Source: Candidatus Methylomirabilota bacterium (GTDB lineage: Bacteria > Methylomirabilota > Methylomirabilia > Rokubacteriales > CSP1-6). Taken from it: a stretch of DNA of 64,000 bases. Under the pieces are notes generated by a model that ran no database searches, was not told the DNA's origin, and worked only from the letters and a program-made list of their open reading frames with translations. The stretch's first letter is position 1. Each line of letters begins with the position of its first letter. Below are positions 3,495 to 26,633 of this stretch, one piece after another. The position numbers and the translations under genes are program-made. The stretch is from NCBI GenBank assembly GCA_036556905.1, contig DATBIM010000102.1:70714-134713 (forward strand), written 5' to 3'.

Positions 3495-6194
3495 TCAGCG
3501 CTGACCGTCAATCGCCGGGGGCGGACTCACCCGGGGAAGCTCCACGTGCACCGTGAGACCCCCGCCAGGATTGCCGGTGGCCCACATCCGCCCGTCGTGG
3601 GCGCTGACGATCGAGCGACTGATCGAGAGGCCCATGCCGAGCCCGTCGCGCTTGGTGCTGACAAAGGGGGCGAAGATTCGCTCCAGGTCCGAGTCGGGCA
3701 CCCCGACGCCGGTATCGGAAACGGTAAGCTCCACCGACCCCGCCGCGGACGCCGCCGTGGCGACGGTGATCTCCCGGCGCGTTGCGGCGCCGGCGCCGAT
3801 GGCGTCGGCGGCGTTGACGAGGAGGTTCAGGAGCACCTGTTGCAGCTGGACGGGATCGGCCATCACGGGCGGGAGGGACGGGGCCAGGTCGAAGGTGGTG
3901 ATGATGCCCTTACTCTGGAAATCGTGGCGCAGCAGCGTGGTCACGCCCATGACGAGCCCGTTGCAGTCCACCGGTTCGGGTCTGGCCTCCTCTCGCCTGG
4001 CCAGGGCCCGGAGCCGCCCGATGATGAGGGCCGCCCGCTTGGCGTCCTCTGAGATGTCGGCGAGGGCGTCCCGGAGATCTTCGGGGCCGGCCGAGGAGGC
4101 CTCCACCATCCGGCGGGCGGCCTGGGCGTTGGTGAGGATGGCGGCCAGCGGTTGATTGATCTCGTGGGCCAGCGCCGCGGTCAGCTCGCCCATGGTCGTC
4201 GTACGGAGCACGTGGGCCAGCTCGTCGCGCTGGTGTCGGGCCTCCTCCTCGGCCCGCCGCCGTCGGGTGATGTCGATGTGCGAGATGATGGCGCCGCCCT
4301 CCGGCCGTCGGAACGGCTCCACGACCAGCTCGAACCAGCGCTCGCCCGCCGGCGTGCTGGCCGGATACTCGAATGAGGCCTGGGGCGTCACGCCAGCGAG
4401 GACGGACTCGATCGCATCGAGCATCGGCTTGGCATACGGCTCCCCGGCCGCGGCGGCCTGGCGGCAGACGGCCAGGTAGTTCGCCCCGACGGGCGGCCGG
4501 GCAAATTCCGCCCCCGACTCCCCGATGGCCTGCGTCCACGACTCGTTGATGGTCAGGATCACGCCATCACGATCAACGGCCGCGAGTTGCCCGTAGAGCG
4601 ACGAGAAGGCGGCGCTGCGCAGCATCGTGTGCTCGAGGAGCATCTGTCGGGCTGCCCTGACGTCGGTGACATCGATCCCGGAACCCATGTAGCCGAGGAA
4701 CTCGCCACGGGCGTCCACGCGGGGCACGCCGTGGTCGAGGATCCAGCGGAACTCGCCGTCGGCGCGCCGGAGCCGGTACTCGAGGGTGAACGGCTCGCGG
4801 GCCGCGAAGGCTCGACGATATTCGCCGAGGCACTGCGTGACGTCCTCGGGATGGATGCCTTCCGTCCAGCCGTCGCCCAGCTCCTCCTCGAGCCTCCGTC
4901 CCGTGAACTGAAGCCAGCGGGTATTGAAGTAGGTGCAGCGGGCATCGACGCCCGCCAGCCACAGCATGGAGGGGAACGTCTCCGCCATCAGCAGGAAGCG
5001 CTGCTCGCTCTCGCGCATGGCGATCTGGGCCTGATCGAGCCCGCGCTGGACGTGCCGTCGTCGACGCCGCTCGAGGAGCAGACCGGCGATGAGCGCGGCC
5101 TGCAGGGCGATCAGGGCGGTGGCGCCGACGATGGGCCACCGGTAGAGCTCCCAGGCCGACGGCGAGCGGAAGCGCACGATGCTGCCGGCCGGAAGGCGGC
5201 GCTCACTGATAGACCAGCGCCGGAGCTGCCGGGCATCGAACATGGTGATGGCCCCGTCCTGCAGGATGACCTCCGGGGCGAGGGGTTCCCCCCGGAGAAC
5301 GCGGAGTCCGAGCTCGGCAGCCCTCGCGCCCAGGGCCTCGAAGCTGATCAGGGCACCACCGACGATGCCGTGGCCGAGTAGCGTGTCGGCAACGCTGTAG
5401 ATGGGCACGGGGGCGCCGGTGGCGACCTGCTTGAGCGCGTCGGGCGTGGTGAAGGTGCGGCCAGCGCCGTCGCGCAGGAAGCCACCCATAATGATGACGG
5501 TGCGCCTGGGCAGGGCCCGCACCGCCTCCAGGACCTGCGGCATGGGCAGGCCGGTCAAGTAGCCGAGCTGGACACGGTCGCGGTATCCCGAGAAGGCCTC
5601 CCGAGCCTGTGCTTCCAGGCCGCGATCGCTGTCACCGGCGCCTCCGACGAAGACGACGCGCTCGGTGTCGGGATGCAACCTCAGCACTAGCTCCAGTGTG
5701 GCCGCCCACGGCAGAACCATCGACACGCCCGTAACACCGGGCGGGAGCCGGGGCTGCCCGAGGGCTGAGGAGACGGGCTGGCAGAACACGATCGGGACCT
5801 CCGGGAAGGCCGCGGCCCGTTCCCGGAGGATGAGCCGGGTCATACCATCCCCGCACACCACGATCAGGTCCAGGCGACTCGCCGCATACTTCCGCGCCAG
5901 CAGCCGGAGCAGGTCGTGCTCGTTCCCCTGATTCGCCAGCCAGGAGAGGTCGATGTACTCGGTGTAGAAGCGGAGCGGCTCCGGGGAGCCCGCTTCGAGC
6001 GTCCTTCGCAATCCCTGGTCCAGGCTGATGACGGCCGGCACCAACCGAGCTTCCCCATAGATCAACAGCACCGATCTGGCGTCCGCGCCGGCGGTCTCCG
6101 TGGCCGTGACCACCAGCGAGGTCGCGAGGACGAAGATCAGACGGAGCGAAGCCAGCGCGAGGAGATTGTGAGGATCCATCCTGGCTGGCATAGT
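3495..6194 (-). CDS. hybrid sensor histidine kinase: periplasmic ABC-type substrate-binding-like domain, TM, PAS/PAC, HisKA, HATPase_c
   Basis: N-terminal signal peptide/TM plus a ~300-aa SBP-like domain; TM; PAS; H-box 'LAHEINQPL'; G-box 'DTGVGVP...GLGMGLSISRSIV'; start chosen at MPARMDPHN (track ORF runs to 6278). Confidence 0.75.
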   Translation of the reverse strand, partial: TMPARMDPHNLLALASLRLIFVLATSLVVTATETAGADARSVLLIYGEARLVPAVISLDQGLRRTLEAGSPEPLRFYTEYIDLSWLANQGNEHDLLRLLARKYAASRLDLIVVCGDGMTRLILRERAAAFPEVPIVFCQPVSSALGQPRLPPGVTGVSMVLPWAATLELVLRLHPDTERVVFVGGAGDSDRGLEAQAREAFSGYRDRVQLGYLTGLPMPQVLEAVRALPRRTVIIMGGFLRDGAGRTFTTPDALKQVATGAPVPIYSVADTLLGHGIVGGALISFEALGARAAELGLRVLRGEPLAPEVILQDGAITMFDARQLRRWSISERRLPAGSIVRFRSPSAWELYRWPIVGATALIALQAALIAGLLLERRRRRHVQRGLDQAQIAMRESEQRFLLMAETFPSMLWLAGVDARCTYFNTRWLQFTGRRLEEELGDGWTEGIHPEDVTQCLGEYRRAFAAREPFTLEYRLRRADGEFRWILDHGVPRVDARGEFLGYMGSGIDVTDVRAARQMLLEHTMLRSAAFSSLYGQLAAVDRDGVILTINESWTQAIGESGAEFARPPVGANYLAVCRQAAAAGEPYAKPMLDAIESVLAGVTPQASFEYPASTPAGERWFELVVEPFRRPEGGAIISHIDITRRRRAEEEARHQRDELAHVLRTTTMGELTAALAHEINQPLAAILTNAQAARRMVEASSAGPEDLRDALADISEDAKRAALIIGRLRALARREEARPEPVDCNGLVMGVTTLLRHDFQSKGIITTFDLAPSLPPVMADPVQLQQVLLNLLVNAADAIGAGAATRREITVATAASAAGSVELTVSDTGVGVPDSDLERIFAPFVSTKRDGLGMGLSISRSIVSAHDGRMWATGNPGGGLTVHVELPRVSPPPAIDGQR

Positions 6195-6334
6195 CGCCAC
6201 GAAGCATAGCGCGTGGGCGGTCACAGATCTAGCACGCACCTGCCGAGCGCCCGCATAGGACGAAGGTCGTAGTCCCAAGCCTGCCGACTTGTGTCACCCT
6301 CTCGCTGAGTTCCCCCACAGAAAGGAGAGCGTTC

Positions 6335-7051
6335 ATGAAACTGAGGTGCGAGCCGAGAACACGTGTTCGGATGCTGGCCGCCCTCGCCGCCCTGAGCCTC
6401 GTCGCCGGTGGGGCGGTTTCCGTCCGCGCCGACGACAAGATGGCCGCCGAGCAGCTGGTCACCAGAGCGAAGCTCGTGGTCGAGAGCTTCACCGCGGACG
6501 AGAAGATGGGCTCGCTCCGCGATAATGCGAAGAAGGCCAAGGCTATGTTCGTGGTGCCGGAGGCTTTGCGGGCGGCGTTCATCATCGGGGGCCAGGGAGG
6601 CAGCGGTGTCCTGGTCGCCCGCGACGCCAAGACCAAACGGTGGCTGGGCCCGACGTTCCACACTCTCGGCGGAGCCAGCTTCGGGTTCCAGGCCGGCGCG
6701 GATGCGGCCGAGGTGGTCGCCCTCGCGATGACCGAACGCGGCCTGACCAAGCTCCTCAGCCCAACCGTCACGCTGGGAGGAGACGCCAGCGTGGCGCTCG
6801 GACCCGTCAGCGCTGGTGCGGGAGCCGCCACGGCCGGGCTGAGCGCGGACATCCTGGTTTACTCCCGCTCCAAGGGGCTCTACGGCGGGTTCTCGGCCGA
6901 AGGCGCCGTGGTGAGCGTGAGGGACTCCCTCAACAAGGCGTATTACGGCAAGGAGGTCAGCCCGAGCGACGTCCTGGTGCGTGGCACCCCGCGTAACCCG
7001 AAGGGCGAGCCGCTGCTGAAGGCGGTCGATAAGCTCGCGGCCGCGAAATAG
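6335..7051 (+). CDS. SYLF/Ysc84 (DUF500) domain lipid-binding protein, secreted
   Basis: RBS AAAGGAGAG; signal peptide; conserved SYLF core 'FVVPEALRAAFIIGGQGGSGVLVARD...WLGPTFHTLGGASFGFQAGA'. Confidence 0.6.
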   Translation: MKLRCEPRTRVRMLAALAALSLVAGGAVSVRADDKMAAEQLVTRAKLVVESFTADEKMGSLRDNAKKAKAMFVVPEALRAAFIIGGQGGSGVLVARDAKTKRWLGPTFHTLGGASFGFQAGADAAEVVALAMTERGLTKLLSPTVTLGGDASVALGPVSAGAGAATAGLSADILVYSRSKGLYGGFSAEGAVVSVRDSLNKAYYGKEVSPSDVLVRGTPRNPKGEPLLKAVDKLAAAK

Positions 7052-7091: not shown

Positions 7092-8594
7092 TCACGAGCG
7101 CCCGGGGCCGAAGAATCGGGTGGCGCCGGGATGCAGGGGGATAGTGACGCCTCTGAGCGCGCTGTCCTTGGTCGCCTTGACGCCCTCGGCGCTCCCGGCC
7201 CCGGCGAGATCGGCCCCGGCGAAGACGAGGCTGACCACGTTCTCGACCTCGGCGTCCGGCGCGTCGGTCGTGCTGACGAGCAGCGCCGCCGTCGCTACCG
7301 TAGCGATGGGCTCGCCCTGACCGGGATAGGTGTTGACCGGCAGCGTCATCGCCACGAGGCCGGGGTTCTCGGCGAGGAGGCGGTTGATGCGGGGACTGGG
7401 CAGGGGCAGCAGCCGCATTCCTGTCCCCGCCGCCAGCTTCTGGAGATCCCGGGCGGGAGGGGCGATGGTGACGAAAAACGCGTCGAGCTGGCCGGCGCCG
7501 AGCCGCCGTATGGCCTCTTCGCGTCCGCGCTCGCTCGCCTCGCCCAGGTCGCGAACCCCGAGGCCATGGACCGCCAGCACCGCGACGGCGCTATATTGCG
7601 TCCCTGACCCCGACGGGCCGATATCAACGCGCTTGCCGCGCAGGTCCTCGATGGTGCGGATCGGTGAGGCTGCCGGCACGACGACGTGCACTGCCTCCGG
7701 GAAGAGGCTGCCCAGCGCGCGCAGCGTGGTGAGCGGACCACCCCGTGCGAATGGCCCGCGCCCGGCCACGGCTTGGGTCGCGACGTCGGCCTGAATGATC
7801 GCGTAGTCAGCCTCCCCGCGCGCGAGCAGCCCGGCGTTCTGCACGCTTCCCTCTGTCTCGACGTTTCGGAGGGCCACCTCGGGCCGCACCTTCTTCACGC
7901 TGGCCACCAGCGCCGCCCCGAAGCGCGCGTACTCGCCGCCGCGGGGACCGCTGGCGAACGTGTAGACGTGCTGGCGGCGCGCCAGGCGGCGCTGGATGTT
8001 CTCCGTGGCCCGCTGCAGCTCGTCGGAGATCACCTCATCCTGTCGGGGATCGACTCCGGGCGGCGGGATGGCGACCATCGCGGCCAGCTTGTCGATGAGC
8101 TGCTTCGACCGGGACGGTGGCGCCGTGTTCTCGGGGTCGGGCGCCGCGGTCACGGCGCCCGGCGCGGCCGCCACGCTCTTCCACGCGTCGCCGGACCACT
8201 CGTAGGTGGAAGATCCGTAGACGTGCACCATGTCGCCGGCGCGGTTCTGGGGCTTGATGCCGAAGAGGCCCTTCTCCGTCGCCCCCAGGGCAAAGCCAAG
8301 GCTGGCCGGGCTGAGCTGCTCCCAGCCGGCAAAGTCGTAGTCTTGGCGGAAGCGCAGGACGGCGTTGTAGTAGACGATCAGCCGCTTCGTCCCCTGCTCC
8401 CCCGAGGGGAGTGGCGCGCTGCCCTTACGGCCGAGGGACGCTAACTCGAGGAGACCGTCCTTGACCTGCTTCGCCAGCTTCTCCTGGACCTCCCGTCGCA
8501 GCGTCGCCTCGTCGGGACCTCGGGCACAGCCCACCAGCATGGTCGCGGTGAGAACCGCGAGTCCGGCCCACACCCTGGCCCGCACGCGCCGCAT
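7092..8594 (-). CDS. TAXI-family TRAP-type solute-binding lipoprotein with a ~190-aa N-terminal extension
   Basis: True start is the internal M (MRRVRARVWAGLAVLTATMLVGC lipobox); the upstream 300 codons of the track ORF are GC-junk overlapping gltS; TAXI core 'HVYTFASGPRGGEYARFGAALVASVKK...GEADYAIIQADVA'. Confidence 0.65.
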   Translation of the reverse strand: MRRVRARVWAGLAVLTATMLVGCARGPDEATLRREVQEKLAKQVKDGLLELASLGRKGSAPLPSGEQGTKRLIVYYNAVLRFRQDYDFAGWEQLSPASLGFALGATEKGLFGIKPQNRAGDMVHVYGSSTYEWSGDAWKSVAAAPGAVTAAPDPENTAPPSRSKQLIDKLAAMVAIPPPGVDPRQDEVISDELQRATENIQRRLARRQHVYTFASGPRGGEYARFGAALVASVKKVRPEVALRNVETEGSVQNAGLLARGEADYAIIQADVATQAVAGRGPFARGGPLTTLRALGSLFPEAVHVVVPAASPIRTIEDLRGKRVDIGPSGSGTQYSAVAVLAVHGLGVRDLGEASERGREEAIRRLGAGQLDAFFVTIAPPARDLQKLAAGTGMRLLPLPSPRINRLLAENPGLVAMTLPVNTYPGQGEPIATVATAALLVSTTDAPDAEVENVVSLVFAGADLAGAGSAEGVKATKDSALRGVTIPLHPGATRFFGPGRS

Positions 8595-8596
8595 CC

Positions 8597-9805
8597 TCAG
8601 AACCCGAACAGTGGCAGGGTCAGGTACCCCTGGATGATGAGGGCATTGGTGATATCGATGAAGAAGGCCCCGACCATCGGAACAATGAGGAAGGCCAGCG
8701 GAGAGGGCCCCGCCCGCCCGGTCACCGCCTTCATGATGGCCAGGGCGGCGGCCGTGGACGACATGCCGAAGCCGACGTGGCCGGCGGCCATGATGGCCGC
8801 ATCGTAGTTTCGGCCCATCACCCGGAATGTCACGAAGACGGCATAGGCGGCCATGGCCACCGTCTGTAGCGCCAGGATGAGCAGCAAGGGGCCGGCCAGG
8901 TTCACCAGGTCGAGCAGCTTCATCGCCATCAGCGCCATGACGAGGAAGAGCGACAACGCGGTGCCGCCCAGCAGGTCCACGCTGGCCTCGCTCAGCGAGA
9001 ACCGCCGGGTCAGTGGCAGGACGTTCCTCACCACGACGCCGAGCAGGAGGCAGAAGAGGAAGTCGGGAAGGATGAACCCGGTGCCCTCCATCAGGTGTGC
9101 CAGCAACTGCCCGCCGGCCAGGCATGCCAGAATCACGAACAGGGCGTTGAGGAACGACGCGGCGGTGACGGAGTCCTCCGGCGCGCCCGCCGACGTCGGC
9201 GCCGCCTCCACGGGCGCCGCCTCGGTCGGGCCCGAGAGGCCGTGACGCTTGATGAGGAACTCGGCCAGGGGGCCGCCCAGCAGACCGCCCAGCACCAGAC
9301 CAGCGGTGGCGCAGGCCATGGTCAGCTCCATTGCGCCCTGCAGGTTCATCGTCTCGCCGAAGCGGGTGGCGTAGGCGCCGCCGGTTCCGTGACCGCCGGT
9401 GAGGGTGATGGAGCCGCCCAGGAGACCGACCACCGGGTGCAGGTCCATGGCCCGGGCGGCGACCAGCCCGATCGCGTTCTGGACCACGATGTACACCGTG
9501 CACACCAGCAGGAAGATGAAGAGTTTGGGGCCGCCCTTGACGAGCATCCGGGCATCGGCGGCCAGCCCGACCGACGTGAAGAAGGCCAGCAGGAGCGGAT
9601 CCTTGAGGCTCATGTCGAAGGAGACCCGGGTCCCGGCGAAGCCATCGGCCGTGGCCAGCACGATGGCGATCACGACGCCGCCCACGACGGGCGCGGGCAC
9701 GCTGAAGCGCCCCAGCCAGCCCACCCGGGCCACCAGCACCCGGCCGGCGAAGAGTACGACGATGGCCACCAGGAGCGTGTAGAGCAGGTTGAGCTCGAAC
9801 TTCAC
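8597..9805 (-). CDS. gltS: sodium/glutamate symporter GltS family
   Basis: 402 aa, ~12 TM; N-terminus 'MKFELNLLYTLLVAIVVLFAGRVL' and overall pattern typical of GltS (ESS family); 2-nt gap to the downstream TAXI gene. Confidence 0.75.
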   Translation of the reverse strand: MKFELNLLYTLLVAIVVLFAGRVLVARVGWLGRFSVPAPVVGGVVIAIVLATADGFAGTRVSFDMSLKDPLLLAFFTSVGLAADARMLVKGGPKLFIFLLVCTVYIVVQNAIGLVAARAMDLHPVVGLLGGSITLTGGHGTGGAYATRFGETMNLQGAMELTMACATAGLVLGGLLGGPLAEFLIKRHGLSGPTEAAPVEAAPTSAGAPEDSVTAASFLNALFVILACLAGGQLLAHLMEGTGFILPDFLFCLLLGVVVRNVLPLTRRFSLSEASVDLLGGTALSLFLVMALMAMKLLDLVNLAGPLLLILALQTVAMAAYAVFVTFRVMGRNYDAAIMAAGHVGFGMSSTAAALAIMKAVTGRAGPSPLAFLIVPMVGAFFIDITNALIIQGYLTLPLFGF

Positions 9806-9815
9806 AGGCTCCTCG

Positions 9816-11207
9816 TCAGAGCAGATCCAGCTCGTAGTTGATGATGATGCGATAGTCCACGAGCGTGGAGGCGTCGCCCCGGCCCACGTAGGCGTTGCGG
9901 AAGCGCAGCGAGAGCCCCTTCACGGTCGGCACGTTGTAGGTGACGTCGAGATTTCCCTCGTGGGTATTGGGCTGGCTGCTTCCCGTCGCCGGGTCCTCGC
10001 GATCGGTGCCCATGGCGTAGAGCAGGTGCACGGTCAGGCCCGGGAGCGACAAGGGCAGCAGCGCCCCCCCGAAGTCGTACTTGACACCCACCCCGAACGC
10101 CTTCTCGTTGGCCCGGTCGAAATCCGTGACCATCAGAGACAGGTAGCCAGGCCACGAGCCCCAGGGGGAGCGGATCGAGGCTTCGTCGCCGGTGAAGTGC
10201 GTGGCCGCCCCCAGGGACAGGCCCTTGAACAGGAGGCGTGCCCCCGCGCCGACGTTCCAGGTGTTGAACTCGCCCAGCCGCTGGTCCCCGACATCTCGCT
10301 GGTCGGTGAACTGCAGACCGAACTGCATCTTGAGGTCTCGGCTGAACGCGTGCGTGTACTCGCCCTTGAGGAACGTGGTGTTGAACACCTCCTGGGCGTA
10401 ATAATTGCCGGCGTAGAGCAGCAGATCCTTGATCGGCGTGAAGGCCAGGGAGGTCAGGATCAGCCCTTCGTCGCCGCCGGCTGCGCCCGCCTGTTGAGAC
10501 ATCGAGATGAAGTCGTTCGAGTCCCGAGGCTTGATGTTCCAGACATACCCCACGTCGTACCGGAGCCGGTCGAGCGTACCGGAGAGGGTGACGGCCTCGA
10601 AGGTGTTCGGGACCATCCGATTGTCTTGCGGGTTCACGTAGCCGTCGTCGATCTTCTGGCGGTACCCCTTGAAGAGGGCGTATTCCTTGTAGCGAAGCGC
10701 CGCCCAGGCCTCCCCGAACACTCCGATCTCGTCCCCGTCGGGCGTCAGCAGCAGGGTCCCCAGACGGTCGTCGGGGGCGTAGAGCGGCCAGGAGGTGTAG
10801 TACGTCGAGCCGATGGCGAAGATGTCGGCGAGCCAGCCGGAGGCGTACTGCAGCCAGCCGCCGAGCGCCCAGGCCTCGCTGGCCGTGTCGTTGTCGTTCT
10901 GGCGGTTGAAGTAGAAGGTGCGGAACCGGACGTTCAGATCGGTGTCGCGGAAGAACGGATCGAGCTTGCTCATCTCGTCCCGCAGCGCCGGGTAGCCGGT
11001 CTCGAGCAGGCCCGTCTGGGGCGGGGGAGGCGGGGCCGCGTCGGGCGACCGAACGGTCACGTCCTCCTCGAGGATCGGGGCCTTCGGCGGGGCTGCCGGC
11101 GCCGGTTGGGCGGGGCCGGGTTTCGGCGCCGGCTGGGCGACGGCCTGTCCCAGCCCCACCACGCATAGCAGCAGCGTCAGCGCGGGCAGCTGCCACCGCA
11201 CGCTCAT
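9816..11207 (-). CDS. outer-membrane porin (OprD-like / specific-channel beta-barrel)
   Basis: Start at MSVRWQ with signal peptide ...GQAVAQP; AAGGAGG SD that also overlaps the asdA stop; Pro-rich linker then alternating amphipathic strands; C-terminal YELDLL. Confidence 0.5.
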   Translation of the reverse strand: MSVRWQLPALTLLLCVVGLGQAVAQPAPKPGPAQPAPAAPPKAPILEEDVTVRSPDAAPPPPPQTGLLETGYPALRDEMSKLDPFFRDTDLNVRFRTFYFNRQNDNDTASEAWALGGWLQYASGWLADIFAIGSTYYTSWPLYAPDDRLGTLLLTPDGDEIGVFGEAWAALRYKEYALFKGYRQKIDDGYVNPQDNRMVPNTFEAVTLSGTLDRLRYDVGYVWNIKPRDSNDFISMSQQAGAAGGDEGLILTSLAFTPIKDLLLYAGNYYAQEVFNTTFLKGEYTHAFSRDLKMQFGLQFTDQRDVGDQRLGEFNTWNVGAGARLLFKGLSLGAATHFTGDEASIRSPWGSWPGYLSLMVTDFDRANEKAFGVGVKYDFGGALLPLSLPGLTVHLLYAMGTDREDPATGSSQPNTHEGNLDVTYNVPTVKGLSLRFRNAYVGRGDASTLVDYRIIINYELDLL

Positions 11208-11217
11208 CGCCTCCTCC

Positions 11218-12828
11218 TTACTTTTTCGGCGCGCGCTTCGAAGCCTCGAACGCATCCCGGTAGCCGCGGGCAATCGCGCGGACCCCGCGCCCGATGTCGT
11301 CGTACACGTCGTCGCCCAGGTTGGCCAGGGACACGCGGAGCGACCAGTCCGGGGCCTCGAAACCGCCGCCGTTGAGCAGCACGATGCCGTGGGCCTCGGC
11401 CAGCCGGAAGGCGAGGTCCAGCGGGTGGACGTTCTTCTTGAGATAGGTGACCGCCTCCTCGCCGATGTTCTTCCGGGCCCAGAACTCGAAGTCGATGAGG
11501 CCGTAGTAGGCGTCGAAGAGCGGGTTGGGGGCCACTTCCAGGCCCAGCCCTTCGAGGAGCGCCCGGGCCCGTCGATGCACGATCTCCATGCAGGTCTTCT
11601 GGTAGCGCTTCTCGGTGTCCATGAGCTCGGACAGGGAGAACATGGTCATCATGACCTGCTGGGGCAGGGAGAGTCCCGCCGTGTGGTTCAGGCCGACGTC
11701 CCGGCTGTCCGCCACGATGCGGTCGATGAACTTGATCTTCCGGGGCTCGAGGGTGAGCGCGCCGTAGCGCTTGTCGAGCGCCTTCAGCGGGTCGCCGGTG
11801 TGCTTGGCGATCATTTTGTCGTAGATGTTGTCCTGGTGGAGCGCGATGACGCCCAGGCGCCATCCCGTGCAGCCAAAGTACTTCGAGTACGAGTAGACGC
11901 CGATGGTGTTGTGCGGCAACTCGCCGAGGAGCGATCGGAAGCCGGGCACGAAGGTCCCGTACACGTCGTCGGTCAGCAGCATGAGGTCGGGCCGCTTCGT
12001 CTTCACCAGGCTCGCGATCTTGCCGATGCTCTCCTTGCTCAAGGCCACTCCGGTGGGATTGCCGGGGTTGACGAGGAAGAAGGCCTTGATCTTGGGATCC
12101 TCGAGCTTCTTGAGCTCGGCGTCGGTGGGCTGGAAGCGGTTTTCCTGCGGCGACGCGATGTTGACCACGTTCAGCGCGTAGTCCTCCAGATGCGTCATCT
12201 CGAGGTAGGGTGTGAAGATCGGCGTGCCCAGCGCGATGGTGTCGCCGGGCATGAGGAGACGGTTGGCCTTGAGCGACTTGAAGAGATAGCACATGGCCGC
12301 GGTTCCGCCCTCGACCGCGTAGAGGTCGAACTTGCCGGCGGGGCGGGGATCCCCGCACATCGCCCACTGGAGGTACTCGTGCACGACTCGCTCGTTGTGC
12401 ACGAGCATGCGATCGGGGACGGGGTAGTTGTCCCCGATGATCGAGTCCACCAGCTCGTGGACGAAGGCGTCGGGATCGAACTTGAACGTCTTGACCGCGA
12501 AGGCCACCATCTTGCCGAGGAAGGCCGCCCCCGGTGAGTCAGGGTGCTTGGCGAGCCAGGCCTCCAGGCGGGCGGCGATGCCCGGGGCGGCGGGCATGCC
12601 CGCGACACCGGCGGGATGCTCCATCACACGGCGGCTCTCGGTGAGGGCGAACTGGCCGAGCAGGAAGAAGCCTTCCCGCGGCTCGGTGGCGATCCAGTTC
12701 GGGTTGCCGCGGCCGGCGTTGAGGAAGGCGGTCTGCGTGGTCCTGGACGTCTTCTTGGCGAGCTTGATCAGCTCGTCCTTGATCTCGAACGGCCCCATCT
12801 TGTCGAACTGTGTCAGGTCGATGGTCAT
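11218..12828 (-). CDS. asdA: bifunctional aspartate aminotransferase / L-aspartate 4-(beta)-decarboxylase
   Basis: 536 aa; hallmark AsdA blocks 'FEIKDELIKLA','LNAGRGNPN','YPVPDRML','LYAVEGGTAAM','YSYSKYFGCTGWRLGVIA','FIDRIVADSR','LNHTAGLSLPQQV','RVSLANL'. Confidence 0.8.
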   Translation of the reverse strand: MTIDLTQFDKMGPFEIKDELIKLAKKTSRTTQTAFLNAGRGNPNWIATEPREGFFLLGQFALTESRRVMEHPAGVAGMPAAPGIAARLEAWLAKHPDSPGAAFLGKMVAFAVKTFKFDPDAFVHELVDSIIGDNYPVPDRMLVHNERVVHEYLQWAMCGDPRPAGKFDLYAVEGGTAAMCYLFKSLKANRLLMPGDTIALGTPIFTPYLEMTHLEDYALNVVNIASPQENRFQPTDAELKKLEDPKIKAFFLVNPGNPTGVALSKESIGKIASLVKTKRPDLMLLTDDVYGTFVPGFRSLLGELPHNTIGVYSYSKYFGCTGWRLGVIALHQDNIYDKMIAKHTGDPLKALDKRYGALTLEPRKIKFIDRIVADSRDVGLNHTAGLSLPQQVMMTMFSLSELMDTEKRYQKTCMEIVHRRARALLEGLGLEVAPNPLFDAYYGLIDFEFWARKNIGEEAVTYLKKNVHPLDLAFRLAEAHGIVLLNGGGFEAPDWSLRVSLANLGDDVYDDIGRGVRAIARGYRDAFEASKRAPKK

Positions 12829-12860
12829 GGGTAGGCTCCTCGATAGGGTTCAGAGATTCA

Positions 12861-14558
12861 TCAAGAGAGCATGAGAATGATCACCATGCCCCAGATCGTC
12901 AGCAGCGTGTTGCCGATGGCGTAGGTGACGGTATACCCGAGCGCGGGTATCTGGCTCTTGGCCGCATCAGTGACCATGCCGAGTGAGGCGGTGGTCGTGC
13001 GCGCTCCGGAGACCGCGCCCAGCAGGATCGCGTCGTGGAAGCGGAACAGGTACTTGCCGATGTACATGGCGAGGATCAGGGGCACCGTCGTCGCCACGGC
13101 GCCCCACATGAACAGGCTCAGGCCCTGCGTCTTCAGGCCGTTGATGAAGCCCGGGCCGGCCGAGATGCCGACGATGGCAATGAAGATGTTGAGGCCGACC
13201 GAGTTCATGAACCAGACGGTCGACGACGGGATGCGCCCGAAGGACGGCCGCACCGAGCGCAGCCAGCCGAACACGAGCCCCGAGATGAGGGCGCCGCCGG
13301 CGGTGGACAGCGTCAACGGCACTCCGCCGATCTTCCAGACCAGCGCGCCGATCAGGGCGCCGATCGTGACCGCGCCCCCGATGAAGGCGACGTCGGCCAC
13401 GTCGGAAGGTCGATCGGGAACGCCCAGCAGCTTGGTGACGACGGTGGTGTCCTGCGTGCGGCCGACGATGTTGAGGATGTCGCCGCGCTCGATCTTCGTG
13501 TTCGGAAGGATGGGAATGGTGGTGGCGGTTGCCCCCCGCGTGATCTGGCGAAGGAAGACGCCGCGCGCCTCGGGCCGCTGGGCCAGCTCCGCCAGCGTCT
13601 TGCCGTCGACCGCCTTGTTGGTCACGTAGACGTCGACGCCTTCGACCGGGACGGCGAGCAGCTCCGGGTCATCGACCTCCTGCGCCTTCTCGCCGATCAC
13701 CTTCACGAGCACTTCGCGGGTTCCGGCGATGGCCACCACGTCCCCTTCACGGATCACGGTGTCGGCCGTGCCCTCCTCGATTGTCCCGTTGCTGCGGCGG
13801 ATGCGCTCCACGAAGACCCGGGCATTGGGCACCATCGCCTCGGCCTCGACGGCCCGGAGGCCGATGGCCTTGCCGCCCGGCTGCACGCGGAAGGCCCGCA
13901 GCTCCCAACGATGCCAGGCGGAGCCTGCGCCGCCCAGCGCCTTGGCGCCACCACCCTGCTTCTCCTCGTAGTCCTTGCACGCGGCCACCAGATTGATGCG
14001 GAGCAGGGCCGGGCCGACGATCGCGATCACGATCGCCGAACCGACCGTGCCGAAGAGGTACGTCACGGCATAGGCGATGGGCATCGCGTCGAGCAGCCCC
14101 TTGGCCTGGTCGCCGGATAACCCTAGCCGGTTGATGGCATCCGTCGCGAGGCCCATCGAAGCCGAGATGGTCTGCGATCCCGCATACAGCCCGGCCGCGT
14201 AGCCGAGATCGTAGCCGGCCACCTTGGCGACGCCGAAGGCGGCACCCAGGCAGAGCACGCACACGACGGCTGCGTAGATCGCCTGCGGCAAGCCGTCCTT
14301 GGCCACGCCCCGGACGAACTGCGGGCCGACGCCGTAGCCGACGGCGAACAGGAACATCAGGAAGGCAAACGCCTTGAGGGGCTGCGAGATGGTGATCCCG
14401 AGCTGCCCGATGACGACCGCGGCCAGCAGGGTGGCGGTGACGGCCCCCAGGCCGATGCCACGGTAGGTGAACTTGCCGACGTAGTATCCGATCCCCAGAG
14501 AGAGGAAGATGGCGATCTCCGGATACGTGCGCAGCGTCGCGGCGAACCACTCAAACAT
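12861..14558 (-). CDS. aspT: AAE-family (AspT/YidE/YbjL) aspartate:alanine exchanger-like transporter
   Basis: 565 aa; two membrane halves separated by two TrkA-C/RCK_C domains ('[15 protein letters not shown]', '[14 protein letters not shown]'); N-terminus '[29 protein letters not shown]' typical of AAE; located between two PLP decarboxylases. Confidence 0.8.
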
Positions 14559-14570
14559 GGTGTCCTCCGT

Positions 14571-17309
14571 CTAGCGCTTGTGCGTGGCCAGCGCGTCAGG
14601 CTTCAGCAGCTCCAGGCCCTTGGCCGCGTTGTAGCCGTGGATCTCCTTCACGTCGAGCTTGCGCATGAACGTGATGATCTCTTTGGTGACGACCTGGCCC
14701 GGCACCATGATGGGGAAGCCGGGCGGGTAGGGGATCACGAACTTCGCCGAGACCAGCTCCGGGCCCTTGGCCAAGCGCTCGTCGATCTCCTTGCTCTGGA
14801 GCTTGACGTGCTCGATGTTGGCGGCATCGTACGCCATGTAGTACGCCTCGCGCATGTGCCCTTCCTGGGTGGCGCTCTTCGCATTGTCCCGGAAGGCGTC
14901 GTGGAAGCGCTGGAAGTCGGGCAGGTCGGGCACGTCCTCGACCAGCGACTTCACCCGCGCCTTGAAGGCGGCCAGCTCCTCTTCGCCCCCCTCGGCGAGC
15001 CGCTTCTCGATGGCCCGCGCCATGTCGGCCAGGGCCTTGATCAGATGGGCGAGGTCGCTCCGGGTGTTGTTGATGTTGATCTGGACGAGCACGCTGTTGC
15101 GGGAGGTCTTGTTGATCTGGATGTCGTGCTCGCTGGCCAGCAGCGCCTTGAACTGGGTGCCGTCGTACGCGGCAGCCCCGCAGAGGAGCGTGATCCGGGT
15201 CGGATCCAGGTAGAACTCGTCGTTGTCCAGCGCCCCGATCGTGTCGTTCATCGTCCACCCCGGTGCGCCCCAGTCGGTGAAGCCCGACTTCCGGTACTCG
15301 GCGGGGATCATCTCGGCCGGGGTGGCGATGCGGAAGTACTTGGAGATGAGGGGGTGCGAGTTGACCTGACGCCGGACTTCGATGGCCAGCTGGATGGCCC
15401 GCCCGACGAGCTCGTAGCCCTCCAGCTCCATCTGCCGGCGCGCCACGTCCAGCGAGGCGATGATCTGGAGATTCGGCGAGGTCGAGGTGTGGGTGAAGAA
15501 CGCCTCCTTGAAGGAGGCCTCTACCGTGTAGAAATCCTGATCGGCGACGACAATGATCGAGCCCTGGCGGAGCGAGGACATCGACTTGTGCACCGAGTCG
15601 GTTTCGTAGACACGGACGCGCACCTGGTCGGGATCCGGCAGCAGCTCCATGTCCACCAGCTTCGGGTCCTTCGGGTCCAGCTTGCCGGCGCTGGCTCGGA
15701 ACGCCTCGTAGCGCTTGCGGTACTCCGGGTCGCGCATCAGCTCGCGAATGGCGGCCGCCGCGCCCATGGCCGTGCGGCGACGTAGAAATGGCGAGAAGCG
15801 GGCGAACCCGAACCACGCCTCGTCCCACAGAAAGATCAGATCGGGCTTGATGGCCAGACATTCCAGCATGGTCCGTTTGGTGTTGGCGACGTGGCCGTCG
15901 AAGGTGCAGTTGGTCAGGACCACCATCTTCGCGCGGTCCAGCTTGCCCTCGGCCTTGAGCTGAAGCAGGGCCTTCTTGATGGGCTTGATGGCCAGGCTGC
16001 CGTACATGGAGTACTGGGTGAGCGGGAACGCGTCGATGTAGAGCGGCTGGGCACCCGCCAGCACCAGCCCGTAGTGGTGCGACTTGTGACAGTCGCGGTC
16101 GATCAGCACGATGTCACCCGGCCGGAGCAGGGCCTGGTGGACGATCTTGTTCGAGGTGGAGGTGCCGTTGGTGACGAAGAAGCTGCGGTCGCCGCCGAGC
16201 GCGCGGGCGGCCTTGTCCTGGGCGACCTTGATGTTGCCGGTGGGCTCCAGCAGGCTGTCCAGCCCACCGGTGGTGGCCGAGGACTCGGCCAGGAACAGGT
16301 TGGCCCCGTAGAACTCGCCCATGTCGCGGATCCAGTTGGACTTGAAGATCGACTTTCCCCGGGCCACCGGCAGCGCGTGGAACGTGCCGATCGGGCGCTG
16401 GGCGTAGTTCTTGAGGTTATCGAAGTACGGCGTCTCGTAGCGGTCCTGCACCCCGTCGAGGATCGCCAGGTGGATCTCCATCGGCTCCTCGACCCCGTAG
16501 AAGATTCGCCGGATCGGCGCCGCCTCGGCGGAGCCGGCCAGGCGGCCGACGTCGCGGTCGGTGGTGAGGTAGACGTCGAGCTCCGGCCGCCAGCGGCGCA
16601 CCATCTGCCCCAGGAGGGTCCCTAGATCGCCGCTGCGCGCGGACTCGGCGATCTGCACCTGCCGGGTGAGGATCTCGCGCAGGATCGGCAGCGTGTGCTG
16701 CGAGGGGTAGGCGAAGCCGTCGCTGATCACGACGGCCTGCAAATTCGTGTTGAAGACCACGGCCAGGACCGCATCCTCGAAGCTGCCCACGACGACGGGC
16801 TCGTACACGAACTGGTCCTCGGCGCGGCGCAGCCGGCGAAACGTCTCCCGGATCTCCGGCCACATGGCCCGCTCGGCGGGCGACACATACAGAACCTCGA
16901 AGTAGGGTCGGCGGGCCTGGCCGCGACCGATCGACGGAGGCAGGACGTCGGGCAGGCGGGCCTCGCCCTCCTCGTCGGCCCTCCAGGGCTCCTGGTCGTC
17001 GCGGTAGCTGTTGGAGAGCAGCGCGCTGCTGATCCGCTGGACCAGACGAGCGAAGCCCGTCCAGTCCCCGGTCTCCAGGCGCTCGCGGAGCTGCGTCATC
17101 AATCGGGGTCCCGGGTAGCCGCAGAGGTCCTCCAGCGGTGCCAGCTCGGCCAGGAGCGCCTGCGGGTCCTCGCCAGGGCCGCCGGCCGGGCGCTGTCCAG
17201 TTCCGGCGAGCCCCTTGGCCACGCGGTTCAGCGTCCGCCAGCGGTCGATGCGCGCCTCTGAGGCGGCGAAGAAGTCCCGAAGAGTCGTCAGTTGAGTGGT
17301 GTCAGCCAT
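14571..17309 (-). CDS. Orn/Lys/Arg decarboxylase-family PLP-dependent decarboxylase (large, 912 aa, with N-terminal extension)
   Basis: OKR_DC_1 core 'SNWIRDMGEFYGANLFLAESSATTGGLDSLLEPTG...FFVTNGTSTSNKIVHQALLRPGDIVLIDRDCHKSHHYG'; wing domain 'YFEVLYV..VVGSFEDAV'; C-terminal OKR_DC_1_C. Confidence 0.75.
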   Translation of the reverse strand: MADTTQLTTLRDFFAASEARIDRWRTLNRVAKGLAGTGQRPAGGPGEDPQALLAELAPLEDLCGYPGPRLMTQLRERLETGDWTGFARLVQRISSALLSNSYRDDQEPWRADEEGEARLPDVLPPSIGRGQARRPYFEVLYVSPAERAMWPEIRETFRRLRRAEDQFVYEPVVVGSFEDAVLAVVFNTNLQAVVISDGFAYPSQHTLPILREILTRQVQIAESARSGDLGTLLGQMVRRWRPELDVYLTTDRDVGRLAGSAEAAPIRRIFYGVEEPMEIHLAILDGVQDRYETPYFDNLKNYAQRPIGTFHALPVARGKSIFKSNWIRDMGEFYGANLFLAESSATTGGLDSLLEPTGNIKVAQDKAARALGGDRSFFVTNGTSTSNKIVHQALLRPGDIVLIDRDCHKSHHYGLVLAGAQPLYIDAFPLTQYSMYGSLAIKPIKKALLQLKAEGKLDRAKMVVLTNCTFDGHVANTKRTMLECLAIKPDLIFLWDEAWFGFARFSPFLRRRTAMGAAAAIRELMRDPEYRKRYEAFRASAGKLDPKDPKLVDMELLPDPDQVRVRVYETDSVHKSMSSLRQGSIIVVADQDFYTVEASFKEAFFTHTSTSPNLQIIASLDVARRQMELEGYELVGRAIQLAIEVRRQVNSHPLISKYFRIATPAEMIPAEYRKSGFTDWGAPGWTMNDTIGALDNDEFYLDPTRITLLCGAAAYDGTQFKALLASEHDIQINKTSRNSVLVQININNTRSDLAHLIKALADMARAIEKRLAEGGEEELAAFKARVKSLVEDVPDLPDFQRFHDAFRDNAKSATQEGHMREAYYMAYDAANIEHVKLQSKEIDERLAKGPELVSAKFVIPYPPGFPIMVPGQVVTKEIITFMRKLDVKEIHGYNAAKGLELLKPDALATHKR

Positions 17310-17579
17310 GAGTTATTCTCCTGCTAGCAATCTGCCATCGGTCCGGATCCGGTCCCTGTCTCAGCGATTTCACGCGGCGGATGGTAGGCGAGTTTGCCAC
17401 TTTCGTCCATCCGACCAAGGTCTCATTTATGCCGGTATGGCGTTGTGGTGTGCTCGCCGGGTGACACGATTGCCGATCGGGGGATGGCGGGCCCGCTGGT
17501 CCGGCAGTACAATCGTGCCCCCTCGTCCGCTGGCTGAAGGCGCGCAGCCTCGCCGCGCGGGTTGGGGCTGGGAGGCTCA

Positions 17580-19004
17580 ATGTTGATGACACGACTGGCT
17601 CGCACGCTCGGGGCGCGACCGCTGGGGCATTGGCTGGCCGGCGTCGCGTTGCTGGCCCTGAGCGCCGGATGCCAGGGGGGAGACAGCAAGGCGTCCAAGC
17701 AGGCGCCGGCCCCCCCCCCGCCCACCGTCATCGTCGCCGAGGTAGACCAGAGGACCGTACAGGTTGGCGGAGAGTTCGTGGCGCGCACGGAGGGAGTGCC
17801 CACCGTGGAGACCCGGGCCCGAGTCCCCGGGGTGCTGGAACAGGTGTTGTTCCGCGAGGGCTCGGAAGTCCGGAAGGGTCAGCGGCTCTTCGTGATCCAG
17901 CAGGACGAGTACAAGGCGGCGCTCCAGTCGGCGCGCGCCCAGCTGGCCAAGGCGCAAGCCGACCTCACCCGCGCCCGGGACGTCTCGGTCATCGACCGAG
18001 CCCGGGCCAACCTCGATCAGGCCAAGGCCGATCTGGGGAGAGCACGTCAGGACGTGGCCCGCTATCGCCCCCTGGCCCAGGCCCAGGCGATCCCCCAACA
18101 GGATCTGGACACGGCGATCTCCCGCGAGCAAGTCGCGGCGGCCGCGGTGGAGGGCGCCGACGCCGCCCTCAAGGACACGGTGCTGAACCAGCGCACGGCC
18201 ATCCAGCTCGCCCAGGCCGCGGTGGAGTCGGCCAAGGCCGCCGTGATCCAGGCCGACCTGAACCTCAAGTACACCGTGGTCGAGGCGCCGATCACTGGGA
18301 TCATCAGCAAGCTGGCGGTCGATACGGGAAACCTCGTCGGCAAGGGAGAACCCACGCTCCTGGCCACCGTGTCGGCGATCCACCCCATCTACGTGGACTT
18401 CTCGATCGTCGAGGCGGACTACCTCCGGCTGGTCAAGCGCGAGCCCGGGCTCGGCCGCGGCGAGGTGCCCCGGGACCGCGCGCCCACGCTCGAGCTGCTC
18501 CTGGCCGATGGCAGCGTCTACCCGCACAAGGGCCAGACGATCTTCGTCGACCGCGCCATCGACCCGAAGACGGGCACCATCCAGGTCCGGGCGGAGTTCC
18601 CCAATCCCGAGCGGGTACTGCGCCCGGGTCAGTTCGCGCGGGTGCGCGCCATCACCGAAGAGGTGCCCGATGCGATTCTGGTTCCCCAGCTCGCCGTGCA
18701 GGACCTCCAGGGCGCGAAAACGGTGCTGGTGGTCGGTGAGGGTGACAAGGTCGCGCTGCGGACCGTGACCCTGCGCGAGGCCTATCAGCAGTTCTACATC
18801 GTGACGGCCGGGCTCAAGCCCGGGGAACGGGTCATCGTCGAGGGGATCCAGAAGGCCCGACCGGGGATGCAGGTGAAAGCCGAAGTCAAGCCCGCCACCG
18901 ACGGGAAATCGGGTCCAGCTCCGCCGCCCGCGCAAGCCACCTCGCCGGACGCGGCCCCGCCGCCGGCGGCATCGCCTCCGGGGAAGGCGGACAGCGGGCG
19001 CTAG
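17580..19004 (+). CDS. RND efflux periplasmic adaptor (membrane fusion protein, MexA/AcrA family)
   Basis: GGGAGG SD; lipoprotein signal LALSAGCQGG; coiled-coil hairpin, lipoyl and beta-barrel motifs; Pro/Ala-rich C-terminal tail. Confidence 0.75.
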   Translation: MLMTRLARTLGARPLGHWLAGVALLALSAGCQGGDSKASKQAPAPPPPTVIVAEVDQRTVQVGGEFVARTEGVPTVETRARVPGVLEQVLFREGSEVRKGQRLFVIQQDEYKAALQSARAQLAKAQADLTRARDVSVIDRARANLDQAKADLGRARQDVARYRPLAQAQAIPQQDLDTAISREQVAAAAVEGADAALKDTVLNQRTAIQLAQAAVESAKAAVIQADLNLKYTVVEAPITGIISKLAVDTGNLVGKGEPTLLATVSAIHPIYVDFSIVEADYLRLVKREPGLGRGEVPRDRAPTLELLLADGSVYPHKGQTIFVDRAIDPKTGTIQVRAEFPNPERVLRPGQFARVRAITEEVPDAILVPQLAVQDLQGAKTVLVVGEGDKVALRTVTLREAYQQFYIVTAGLKPGERVIVEGIQKARPGMQVKAEVKPATDGKSGPAPPPAQATSPDAAPPPAASPPGKADSGR

Positions 19005-19008
19005 CGCC

Positions 19009-23570: not shown

Positions 23571-23611
23571 CAATCGGCGAGCCTGTCGACCAGAACCGAC
23601 GCGAGACCAGG

Positions 23612-24703: not shown

Positions 24704-24762
24704 ACAGGCGGCCGACCGATACGGCGATCGCGGCTCCCGGGCTGGGGGCGACGTGGAAGTCG

Positions 24763-25419: not shown

Positions 25420-25429
25420 CGGGCTCGAG

Positions 25430-26632: not shown

Positions 26633-26633
26633 C

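Follow-up and report, generated by a model that had tools for sequence, protein, structure and literature searches.

Organization of the locus

We analysed a stretch of 64,000 nucleotides (nt) from a Candidatus Methylomirabilota genome (GenBank assembly GCA_036556905.1, contig DATBIM010000102.1, positions 70,714 to 134,713), which is referred to below as the window. At positions 7092–17309 its minus strand carries six open reading frames (ORFs), g1 to g6, which are predicted to encode a long pyridoxal phosphate (PLP)-dependent decarboxylase, an exchanger of the AAE (AAEx) family, the aspartate decarboxylase AsdA, an outer-membrane porin, the glutamate symporter GltS and a lipoprotein of the TAXI family (Table 1). 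We consider it rather probable that the locus is an operon for the uptake and decarboxylation of acidic amino acids, in which three separately described modules are joined with a porin.

The gaps between consecutive genes from g1 to g6 measure 12, 32, 10, 10 and 2 nt. Ribosome-binding sites of the GGAG/GAGG type precede g1 to g5, and g6 begins 2 nt past the gltS stop codon. An initial annotation of this DNA had described six closely spaced minus-strand genes and named their products; the ORFs, the gaps of 2–32 nt and the opposite-strand genes at both ends bear the arrangement out, and Pfam and NCBIfam profiles agree with all six identities. Judged by this packing, the six genes are presumably co-transcribed. 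The G+C content of the window is ~69%, and the presence of OprD, OEP (outer-membrane efflux protein) and AcrB indicates that the host is a diderm.

An identical copy of the cluster, flanks included, was assembled independently from each of four Joint Genome Institute (JGI) metagenome samples, and the identical 912-aa protein is found on 14 contigs. Because the same cluster was assembled from four samples, its genes lie side by side by more than chance. The nearest genomes are metagenome-assembled genomes (MAGs) of Candidatus Methylomirabilota/Rokubacteria.

Table 1. Features of the decarboxylase operon and of the genes that bound it (coordinates of the window).
Feature	Position	Strand	Remarks
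g1: PLP decarboxylase, long-form, four-domain, Rv2531c type	14571–17309	-	912 aa
g2: AAEx-family exchanger, AspT type, class W	12861–14558	-	565 aa
g3: AsdA, predicted L-aspartate 4(beta)-decarboxylase	11218–12828	-	536 aa
g4: OprD/Occ-family outer-membrane channel, signal peptide	9816–11207	-	463 aa, ATG start MSVRW
g5: Na+/glutamate symporter GltS	8597–9805	-	402 aa, GTG start
g6: elongated TAXI lipoprotein, BP0403 type	7092–8594	-	500 aa, start MRRVRA
AspT–AsdA cassette	11139–14570	-	no DNA counterpart in the collinear sister genome L006
Divergent intergenic region 5' of g1, presumed promoter region	17310–17561	-	AGGAG ribosome-binding site 8 nt before ATG
Ysc84-domain gene, bounds the block downstream	6335–7051	+	
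RND efflux operon, bounds the block upstream: membrane-fusion protein (MFP) gene	17562–19004	+	
RND efflux operon: AcrB gene	19009–22179	+	
RND efflux operon: OEP gene		+	follows AcrB

The long-form decarboxylase g1

The g1 protein comprises the Pfam domains OKR_DC_1 and OKR_DC_1_C. Its scores against the NCBIfam models of LdcC, CadA, AdiA, SpeC and SpeF range from 153 to 187 bits, far below the cutoffs of 794–1310 bits, and its best solved relative is Rv2531c of Mycobacterium tuberculosis; a canonical lysine, arginine or ornithine decarboxylase was rejected on these grounds. The match to the Rv2531c structures 9n0n/9n0o (E value of 6.6e-221) aligns residues 17–908 of g1 with residues 23–902 of Rv2531c and includes the extra N-terminal domain, located before the response-regulator-like domain, by which the ‘long form’ of the enzyme (~900–950 aa, four-domain layout) is defined. 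Sequence identity between the two is 44% over the whole length and reaches 60% in the catalytic core. Residues H405, K406, K570 (which forms the Schiff base), R576, T606 and N731 of Rv2531c are identical in g1, and R718 is replaced by lysine. The same pattern, the R718 to lysine exchange included, is seen in all 77 clade members that were extracted, and so in 78 sequences together with g1.

Both in vitro and in vivo, Rv2531c acts as a decarboxylase of L-glutamate, with no activity on lysine, ornithine or arginine (PMC13506015, PNAS 2026). The purified enzyme converts L-glutamate to gamma-aminobutyric acid (GABA) in a Mg2+-dependent reaction with a K0.5 of 509 mM and a Hill number of 4; cells without the gene had lost 84% of their GABA and no longer labelled GABA from 13C-glutamate, and the demonstrated role of the enzyme is to direct carbon flux into the GABA shunt (PMC13506015). 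Its structures are deposited as 9N0N, 9N0O and 9N0P (PMC12329521). R576 is the proposed contact of the gamma-carboxylate (PMC13506015, PMC12329521), and when the residues proposed to set specificity were mutated, the proteins were unstable and gave no information (PMC13506015). An alignment-score threshold of 185 defined the presumed isofunctional cluster of Rv2531c (PMC13506015); the E value of the g1–Rv2531c pair is consistent with this threshold, with the reservation that an alignment score and an E value do not measure quite the same thing.

Homology to Rv2531c and the gene context described below make g1 a probable L-glutamate decarboxylase (glutamate + H+ → GABA + CO2). The ‘much larger OKR decarboxylase’ of the initial annotation is right as to family; it does not stand as an unknown enzyme, since g1 falls into the Rv2531c long-form family, which does not act on lysine, ornithine or arginine.

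The AspT–AsdA pair

In g2, two Asp-Al_Ex domains, one in each half of the protein, flank a TrkA_C domain (Pfam). The protein scores 672 bits against TIGR03802, the equivalog model of AspT (cutoff of 547). The prototype of the pair is the AspT/AsdA system of Tetragenococcus halophilus, which operates a proton-motive aspartate/alanine cycle (TC 2.A.81; PMC12462496); precedents for glutamate and succinate transport exist in the AAEx family as well. T. halophilus AspT is a distant match to g2 (177 bits, in two aligned stretches). Its residues T130, S132, Y163, Y167, L431, F434 and T496 are conserved in g2, as are all four residues that the AspT structure paper calls highly conserved. Of the aspartate-contacting residues (T130, S132, Y167, L431, T496 and S498), the first five are retained in g2 and S498 is threonine; the neighbouring Q131 is isoleucine, and D495 is arginine. 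The g2 protein is a probable electrogenic Asp:Ala antiporter, which by homology would share the stoichiometry of T. halophilus AspT.

The adjoining g3, separated from g2 by 32 nt, exceeds the cutoffs of both AsdA equivalogs (NF006755, 768 bits with a cutoff of 321; TIGR03801, 761 bits with a cutoff of 435), and its scores against generic aminotransferase models reach at most 86 bits. The protein matches the solved AsdA structures 2zy2, 2zy3-5 and 3fdd over its full length; on 2zy2 the alignment covers g3 residues 4–529 with an E value of 4e-147. Two motifs are present in this alignment, SYSKYFGCTGWRLG, which is the PLP-lysine motif, and NAGRGNPN. We predict that g3 is an L-aspartate 4(beta)-decarboxylase, which would convert aspartate to alanine and CO2.

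The porin and the predicted TAXI–GltS transporter

The g4 protein matches PF03573 (OprD) with 111 bits over positions 3–393 of the 394-position profile, which corresponds to a full-length barrel, and its N terminus carries a signal sequence, MSVRWQLPALTLLLCVVGLGQAVA. Among solved structures it comes closest, though weakly (E ~1e-15), to carboxylate-channel Occ porins (OpdH, OpdO and a BenF-like protein).

The g5 protein scores 434 bits against TIGR00210 (GltS; cutoff of 311) and matches PF03616 with an E value of 8.5e-119. The presence of GltS in the operon would be accounted for by the family of g1, that of a glutamate decarboxylase. In g6, a TAXI domain (TIGR02122, 238 bits with a cutoff of 84) occupies residues 201–495 behind an N-terminal extension of 200 residues. 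The protein has the lipobox LVGC, whose cysteine, C23, is conserved in at least 90% of 45 homologues. The AlphaFold2 model of g6 (mean predicted local distance difference test score of 85) consists of an alpha/beta N-terminal domain (residues 29–141), helices at 162–173 and 183–207, and a substrate-binding protein (SBP) domain at 211–495. Y222 and Q268 of g6, which are invariant among the 45 homologues, align to Y17 and Q65 of 8s4j, equivalent to Y45 and Q93 of VcGluP. No TRAP (DctQM) membrane gene was found among the scanned neighbours of g5–g6.

These properties match the ‘TAXI–GltS’ pair BP0402/BP0403 of Bordetella pertussis described in 2025 (PMC12344293). BP0403 is a lipoprotein TAXI of 503 aa with an N-terminal alpha/beta domain (20–139), a helical dimerisation domain and an SBP domain (208–503); it binds L-glutamate with a Kd of 180 nM, and mutation of its key residues Y219 and Q263, which correspond to VcGluP Y45 and Q93, lowers the affinity for glutamate 167- to 250-fold (PMC12344293). 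The BP0403 gene lies directly downstream of gltS (BP0402), with an overlap of 3 bp (PMC12344293). On this match we assign g5 and g6 to a BP0402/BP0403-type binding-protein-dependent glutamate symporter in which g6 is predicted to bind glutamate, and by analogy g6 may hand its ligand over to GltS. The 2-nt gap between the two genes and the recurrence of the pair in other phyla had raised the suspicion of a new kind of binding-protein-dependent symporter made of GltS and an orphan TAXI protein, an idea that was dropped because such a system is already published (PMC12344293). The identities that the initial annotation had given to GltS and TAXI are correct; its treatment of them as two independent components gives way to a single published TAXI–GltS system. 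Elsewhere in the window, at 47520–48380 on the plus strand, tblastn detected a weak, distant TAXI-type SBP paralogue that is 29% identical to the SBP domain of g6.

Conservation of the gene set

Relatives of g1 were surveyed in one genome per species. The best 80 of the 562 detected loci, all at least 60% identical and drawn from at least nine phyla, were retained, and the six window proteins together with the neighbours found in Candidatus Manganitrophus were mapped onto them by tblastn; ORF starts in the surveyed loci are approximate. Among the 65 g1-clade loci with at least 4.5 kb of downstream sequence, an AAE gene occurs within 9 kb in 64 and AsdA in 39, and a porin of the OprD or DcaP type is usually present. 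The commonest architecture is (porin)–decarboxylase–AAE–AsdA–second AAE, a second AAE being found in most relatives. Culturable carriers of the core cluster include Cupriavidus plantarum LMG 26296 (L020), Lysobacter niastensis (L045) and Stenotrophomonas sp. PD6 (L083). The near-constant AAE gene and the usual porin mark the g1 clade as a transport-coupled decarboxylase of diderms.

GltS–TAXI adjoins the decarboxylase in Burkholderiales (L018), Myxococcota (L036) and Vicinamibacterales (L056, which has no AAE) and on the contig P0009. GltS alone adjoins it in two further loci, L061 and L006, the latter being cut within gltS. A glutaminase is part of the clusters of Manganitrophus (L005) and L074, and so is an asparaginase. 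The GltS–TAXI neighbours and the glutaminase in relatives provide independent support from gene context for glutamate as the substrate of g1.

The cluster of Manganitrophus (L005 10001–22372) comprises eight genes, for a long decarboxylase, an AAE, a small outer-membrane protein, an AsdA-like protein, an asparaginase, a second AAE, a glutaminase and a DcaP porin, and appears to be an extended version of the system to which amidases for asparagine and glutamine have been added. In a locus from Acidobacteriaceae (L047), the order DcaP–decarboxylase–AspT–AsdA is followed by a gene for a 223-aa protein of unknown function and an overlapping symporter gene of the DASS family (Na_sulph_symp; 16268–18342); these two genes sit where the window has GltS–TAXI.

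The exact six-gene order of the window was seen only in the identical metagenome contigs. A conserved order, for which the comparison had been proposed as a check, is therefore not borne out beyond these contigs, and what is conserved is the set of families and their pairwise links. All six families, together with a second AAE, recur on contig P0009, whose decarboxylase is 92% identical to g1, in the order OprD–decarboxylase–AAE–AsdA–two small genes–AAE–GltS–TAXI and with a divergent sigma-54 activator. On P0009 and on P0002, both from close Rokubacteria relatives, this activator has a GAF domain and lies divergently upstream of the OprD–decarboxylase cluster, and the small genes between AsdA and the second AAE encode CusF-like and DUF4136 proteins. 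The activator has no counterpart beside the operon of the window.

These activators prompted a scan for sigma-54 promoters 5' of g1. One -24/-12-type match with two mismatches, TGGCAGattgcTAGCA at 17322–17337 on the minus strand, was rejected, as 19 such matches occur in the window where 20 are expected by chance and as its position would leave the ribosome-binding site of g1 upstream of the transcript start. No match to the sigma-70 promoter consensus was found upstream of g1 by scanning, an Rfam search of the g1 leader returned no riboswitch or known RNA family, and a consensus scan of the block for intrinsic terminators gave matches not clearly above those in shuffled sequences, none of them convincing on the minus strand.

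AAE exchanger classes

TIGR03802 does not separate AspT from the second-copy AAEs. Four second-copy classes, S4, S6, S7 and S9, also score above its cutoff, so that the model does not discriminate specificity, and gene adjacency and hairpin motifs were used for the AAE classes instead. Average-linkage clustering of pairwise identities among 92 AAE proteins, which is not a phylogeny, gave the following classes. Class W, which includes g2, shares ~77% identity with g2, adjoins AsdA in 35 of 37 cases and carries the motifs GSQTISA and GARTTT at the tips of hairpins HP1 and HP2, respectively. Class C, ~30% identical to g2 and below the TIGR03802 cutoff, directly follows the decarboxylase where AsdA is missing and has the motifs GSQTMSA and GARSHS. 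Classes S4, S6, S7 and S9 are ~40–46% identical to g2 and occur as the second copy or as the sole AAE beside the decarboxylase; the motifs of S6/S7 are GxLTESP and GAQTM. The class-specific motifs are invariant and lie at the two hairpin tips, which bind aspartate in the AspT structure. At the position of T. halophilus AspT D495, classes W and C have arginine, and at that of Q131, S4 and nearly all members of S6/S7 have glutamate. The adjacency of class W to AsdA is kept where the pair is divergent or separate from the decarboxylase (L020, L059, L078 and L082).

On the strength of this adjacency and of the hairpin motifs, class W is likely to be the partner of AsdA, and classes C and S are likely to be the partners of the long decarboxylase. 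The long decarboxylase is linked to at least three AAEx subfamilies (C, S4 and S6/S7) that are uncharacterised so far and that TIGR03802 for the most part does not separate; examples are the class-C gene at L006 12776–14434, the class-S4 gene at L037 17817–19511 and the AAE genes at L044 ~13053 and L013 ~9242, and 50 others are found in L005–L085.

The assignment of class W bears on the substrate of g1. In the commonest architecture the decarboxylase directly precedes an AspT-type AAE and AsdA, so that the g1 clade might instead be an aspartate alpha-decarboxylase, or act on some other substrate, working with the AspT-type exchanger while GltS–TAXI is loosely associated. The identity to Rv2531c of only 44% and the lysine at R718 throughout the clade would fit such a shift, as would the very poor in-vitro affinity of Rv2531c for glutamate and its ill-defined specificity determinants, for which the mutants were uninformative. 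Yet class-W AAE goes with AsdA and not with g1; R576, the proposed gamma-carboxylate binder, is invariant in the 78 sequences along with K406, T606 and N731; the glutamate-specific TAXI–GltS stands beside g1 homologues in five distinct lineages, with L006 counted among them, and once where there is no AAE (L056); a glutaminase belongs to two clusters; and the E value of 6.6e-221 fits the isofunctional threshold of 185, with the proviso that these measures differ. We consider a substrate other than glutamate quite improbable.

Apparent cassette exchange relative to a sister Methylomirabilota genome

By blastn, the DNA on either side of the AAE genes is collinear between the window and L006, a locus of a Methylomirabilota MAG with a decarboxylase 95% identical to g1. 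L006 3738–12739 corresponds to window 23563–14571 at 89% DNA identity, from the RND operon through the end of g1, and L006 14524–16614 corresponds to window 11138–9066 at 85% DNA identity, covering OprD and GltS. Between these segments, L006 12740–14523 (1.8 kb) contains a single class-C AAE, where the window has the 3.4-kb AspT–AsdA cassette. One breakpoint coincides with the stop codon of g1, and the other lies a short way into the signal-peptide region of the porin. This arrangement points to a cassette swap. By this collinearity, the operon of the window would be a glutamate module (decarboxylase, porin, GltS and TAXI) whose own AAE was replaced by an aspartate module. The initial annotation was right in describing the AspT/AsdA pair as embedded among other transport and decarboxylase genes, and in L006 the pair is replaced by one other AAE.

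The collinearity either side of the cassette also speaks against an assembly chimera. If the six genes were such a chimera, or mere neighbours, independently transcribed and unrelated, one would expect what is seen in part, namely that the exact order is confined to identical contigs, that close relatives have other gene orders, and that promoter and terminator could not be defined by scanning. Set against this are the gaps of 2–32 nt with ribosome-binding sites before g1–g5, the independent assembly of the same arrangement from four samples, and the joint occurrence of the same families in at least nine phyla, with all six in P0009. We regard an accidental neighbourhood as very improbable.

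Proposed function

In the pathway that we propose, glutamate would cross the outer membrane through the OprD-family channel, be captured by the tethered TAXI protein and be imported by GltS together with Na+. In the cytoplasm g1 would decarboxylate glutamate to GABA and CO2, consuming one proton. Aspartate would enter through g2 in electrogenic exchange for alanine, and AsdA would supply the alanine for this exchange by beta-decarboxylation of aspartate. The net effect would be that both branches consume cytoplasmic protons and that the aspartate/alanine branch generates membrane potential; the likely pay-off is energy conservation, pH homeostasis or both when acidic amino acids are available. 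GABA might be catabolised as in the mycobacterial GABA shunt, exported promiscuously by the AspT-type exchanger or exported by a transporter encoded elsewhere.

Several points weigh against this pathway. The glutamate branch is without the precursor/product antiporter of classical decarboxylation cycles, and uptake by GltS costs an ion gradient. The 64-kb window contains no further AAE by tblastn, its sole AAE belonging to the AsdA-linked class. The hand-over from TAXI to GltS is itself put forward as a hypothesis in the source paper (PMC12344293). The K0.5 of Rv2531c for glutamate is very high, Mg2+ is needed, and the enzyme serves the GABA shunt rather than an exchange (PMC13506015). The distance between g1 and Rv2531c and the changed R718 also count here, and neither a promoter nor a regulator or acid-responsive element was identified by the consensus scans, the sigma-54 count and the Rfam search.

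A dedicated Glu:GABA antiporter beside the decarboxylase, as in GadBC, is absent from the window, so that the operon falls short of being fully self-contained; relatives have additional AAE genes, of classes C and S, next to the decarboxylase. The description of a ‘complete, self-contained’ module in the initial annotation was overstated in this respect; it fails for the glutamate branch, for which the operon provides neither an antiporter nor an exit for GABA and the window no second AAE. Glutaminase and asparaginase genes were not detected by tblastn elsewhere in the 64 kb.

These gaps would suit a purely nutritional role, in which glutamate and aspartate are scavenged as sources of carbon and nitrogen, GABA enters the shunt, alanine is converted to pyruvate, and the AAE serves mainly for uptake, with no dedicated function in proton motive force or acid resistance. 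A high-affinity, binding-protein-assisted symporter is a scavenging device (PMC12344293, discussion), the demonstrated role of Rv2531c is carbon flux to the GABA shunt, no Glu/GABA antiporter or second AAE is present in the window, and in Acidobacteriaceae (L047) a DASS Na+-symporter takes the equivalent position. However, the AAE genes by the g1 clade in 64 of 65 loci and the porins across phyla are typical of exchange-coupled decarboxylation, AspT/AsdA is the textbook proton-motive cycle, the export of alanine would waste carbon were nutrition the goal, and gabT and gabD were not seen beside the operon. The glutaminase and asparaginase of the Manganitrophus and L074 clusters likewise resemble amidase-assisted acid resistance of the kind known from E. 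coli YbaS/GadC. We hold the purely nutritional explanation to be unlikely, and prefer the operon for uptake and decarboxylation outlined above.

A broader proposal, which we advance tentatively as a realistic possibility, is that in environmental diderms the Rv2531c-type decarboxylase is mainly the catalytic half of a widespread, hitherto unrecognised exchange-coupled system, in which AAEx classes C, S4, S6 and S7 would act as Glu:GABA (or related) antiporters. This system would often be fused with AspT–AsdA into a dual acidic-amino-acid proton-motive locus and be remodelled by cassette exchange; in the window, the AspT-type exchanger may serve both branches, or TAXI–GltS may replace exchange by high-affinity uptake.

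Flanking genes

Divergently from the operon, the plus strand at 17562–27101 carries, after the RND genes, genes for Na_Ca_ex and Ion_trans_2 channel proteins, a 400-aa protein of unknown function and a sulfatase fragment; these neighbours are also found in L006 and in the identical JGI contigs. Downstream of the operon and on the same strand, a PAS-HisKA-HATPase sensor kinase is encoded at 3495–6278, separated from it by the opposite-strand Ysc84 gene; no response regulator was seen alongside the kinase. In L037, too, the cluster is followed by a Ysc84 gene.

Relation to known systems

Each of the modules is known: AspT–AsdA is classical, TAXI–GltS was described in 2025 and the Rv2531c-type glutamate decarboxylase in 2026. 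Their combination, within the literature searched, is new. No description of the six-gene composition was found in the literature searched, in keeping with the initial annotation, which knew of no such operon, and searches for AAE or AspT linked with GABA or with the long decarboxylase returned nothing relevant. Within that literature, three findings are new: that the three modules and a porin are physically joined, that the decarboxylase clade is linked nearly universally, across phyla, to AAEx exchangers (often with AsdA), and that a cassette appears to have been swapped.

By its genomic context, the locus lends independent support to the view that the Rv2531c long-form family is specific for glutamate; the more than 1,000 sequences of this family are mostly annotated as arginine or lysine decarboxylases. 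Gene context also suggests that outside mycobacteria the family has a second, transport-coupled role, which would serve to consume protons or conserve energy and would differ from the cytosolic GABA shunt. The TAXI–GltS transporter would be placed in a defined metabolic pathway, and the three or more uncharacterised AAEx subfamilies are flagged as candidate Glu/GABA exchangers. If classes C and S do exchange glutamate for GABA, they would form a widespread GadBC-like system built from different protein families. For soil Methylomirabilota/Rokubacteria, Acidobacteriota and Burkholderiales, a common route to energy or pH protection from glutamate and aspartate is predicted. The comparison with L006 would furnish a clean example of operon evolution through cassette replacement.

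As in T. halophilus, an AAEx exchanger and an aspartate 4-decarboxylase are encoded side by side, here with both above the NCBIfam equivalog cutoffs. The hairpin tips differ, being GGLTQSA and GADTLS in T. halophilus AspT and GSQTISA and GARTTT in g2, and here the pair is a cassette with a second decarboxylase on one side and a glutamate importer on the other. The host of the window is a diderm, which accounts for the porin added in comparison with the T. halophilus system.

The likeness to BP0402/BP0403 includes gltS just upstream of a lipoprotein TAXI of nearly the same length (500 aa in g6, 503 aa in BP0403), the layout of N-terminal domain, helical region and SBP domain, the glutamate-binding tyrosine and glutamine, and the absence of a nearby TRAP membrane gene. 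As to g6 itself, it rests on the published description of BP0403 and on the VcGluP-aligned residues. The genes overlap by 3 bp in Bordetella, whereas here they are separated by 2 nt. BP0402/BP0403 is a stand-alone uptake pair as far as PMC12344293 describes it; in the window the pair forms the tail of a decarboxylase operon.

Rv2531c and g1 share the four-domain layout, are collinear over g1 residues 17–908 and have in common the Schiff-base lysine, H405, K406, R576, T606 and N731; they differ at R718, which is lysine in g1 and in its entire clade. Rv2531c feeds the GABA shunt, whereas members of the g1 clade are nearly always flanked by AAE exchangers and porins, often with AsdA. Neither of the two Rv2531c papers mentions an operon, an antiporter or a gene neighbourhood (PMC13506015, PMC12329521).

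A broader comparison is with the acid-resistance systems of enterobacteria. GadB–GadC, AdiA–AdiC and CadA–CadB are the classical decarboxylase/antiporter pairs. Like the operon of the window, each of them combines a cytoplasmic PLP decarboxylase that consumes a proton with a genetically linked transport of the substrate, and AdiA and CadA share the OKR fold with g1. In contrast to these systems, the glutamate enzyme here is a long form of the OKR fold and not of the GadB type, and the linked transporters are AAEx and GltS proteins instead of APC-family antiporters, the glutamate branch of the window being served by a symporter only.

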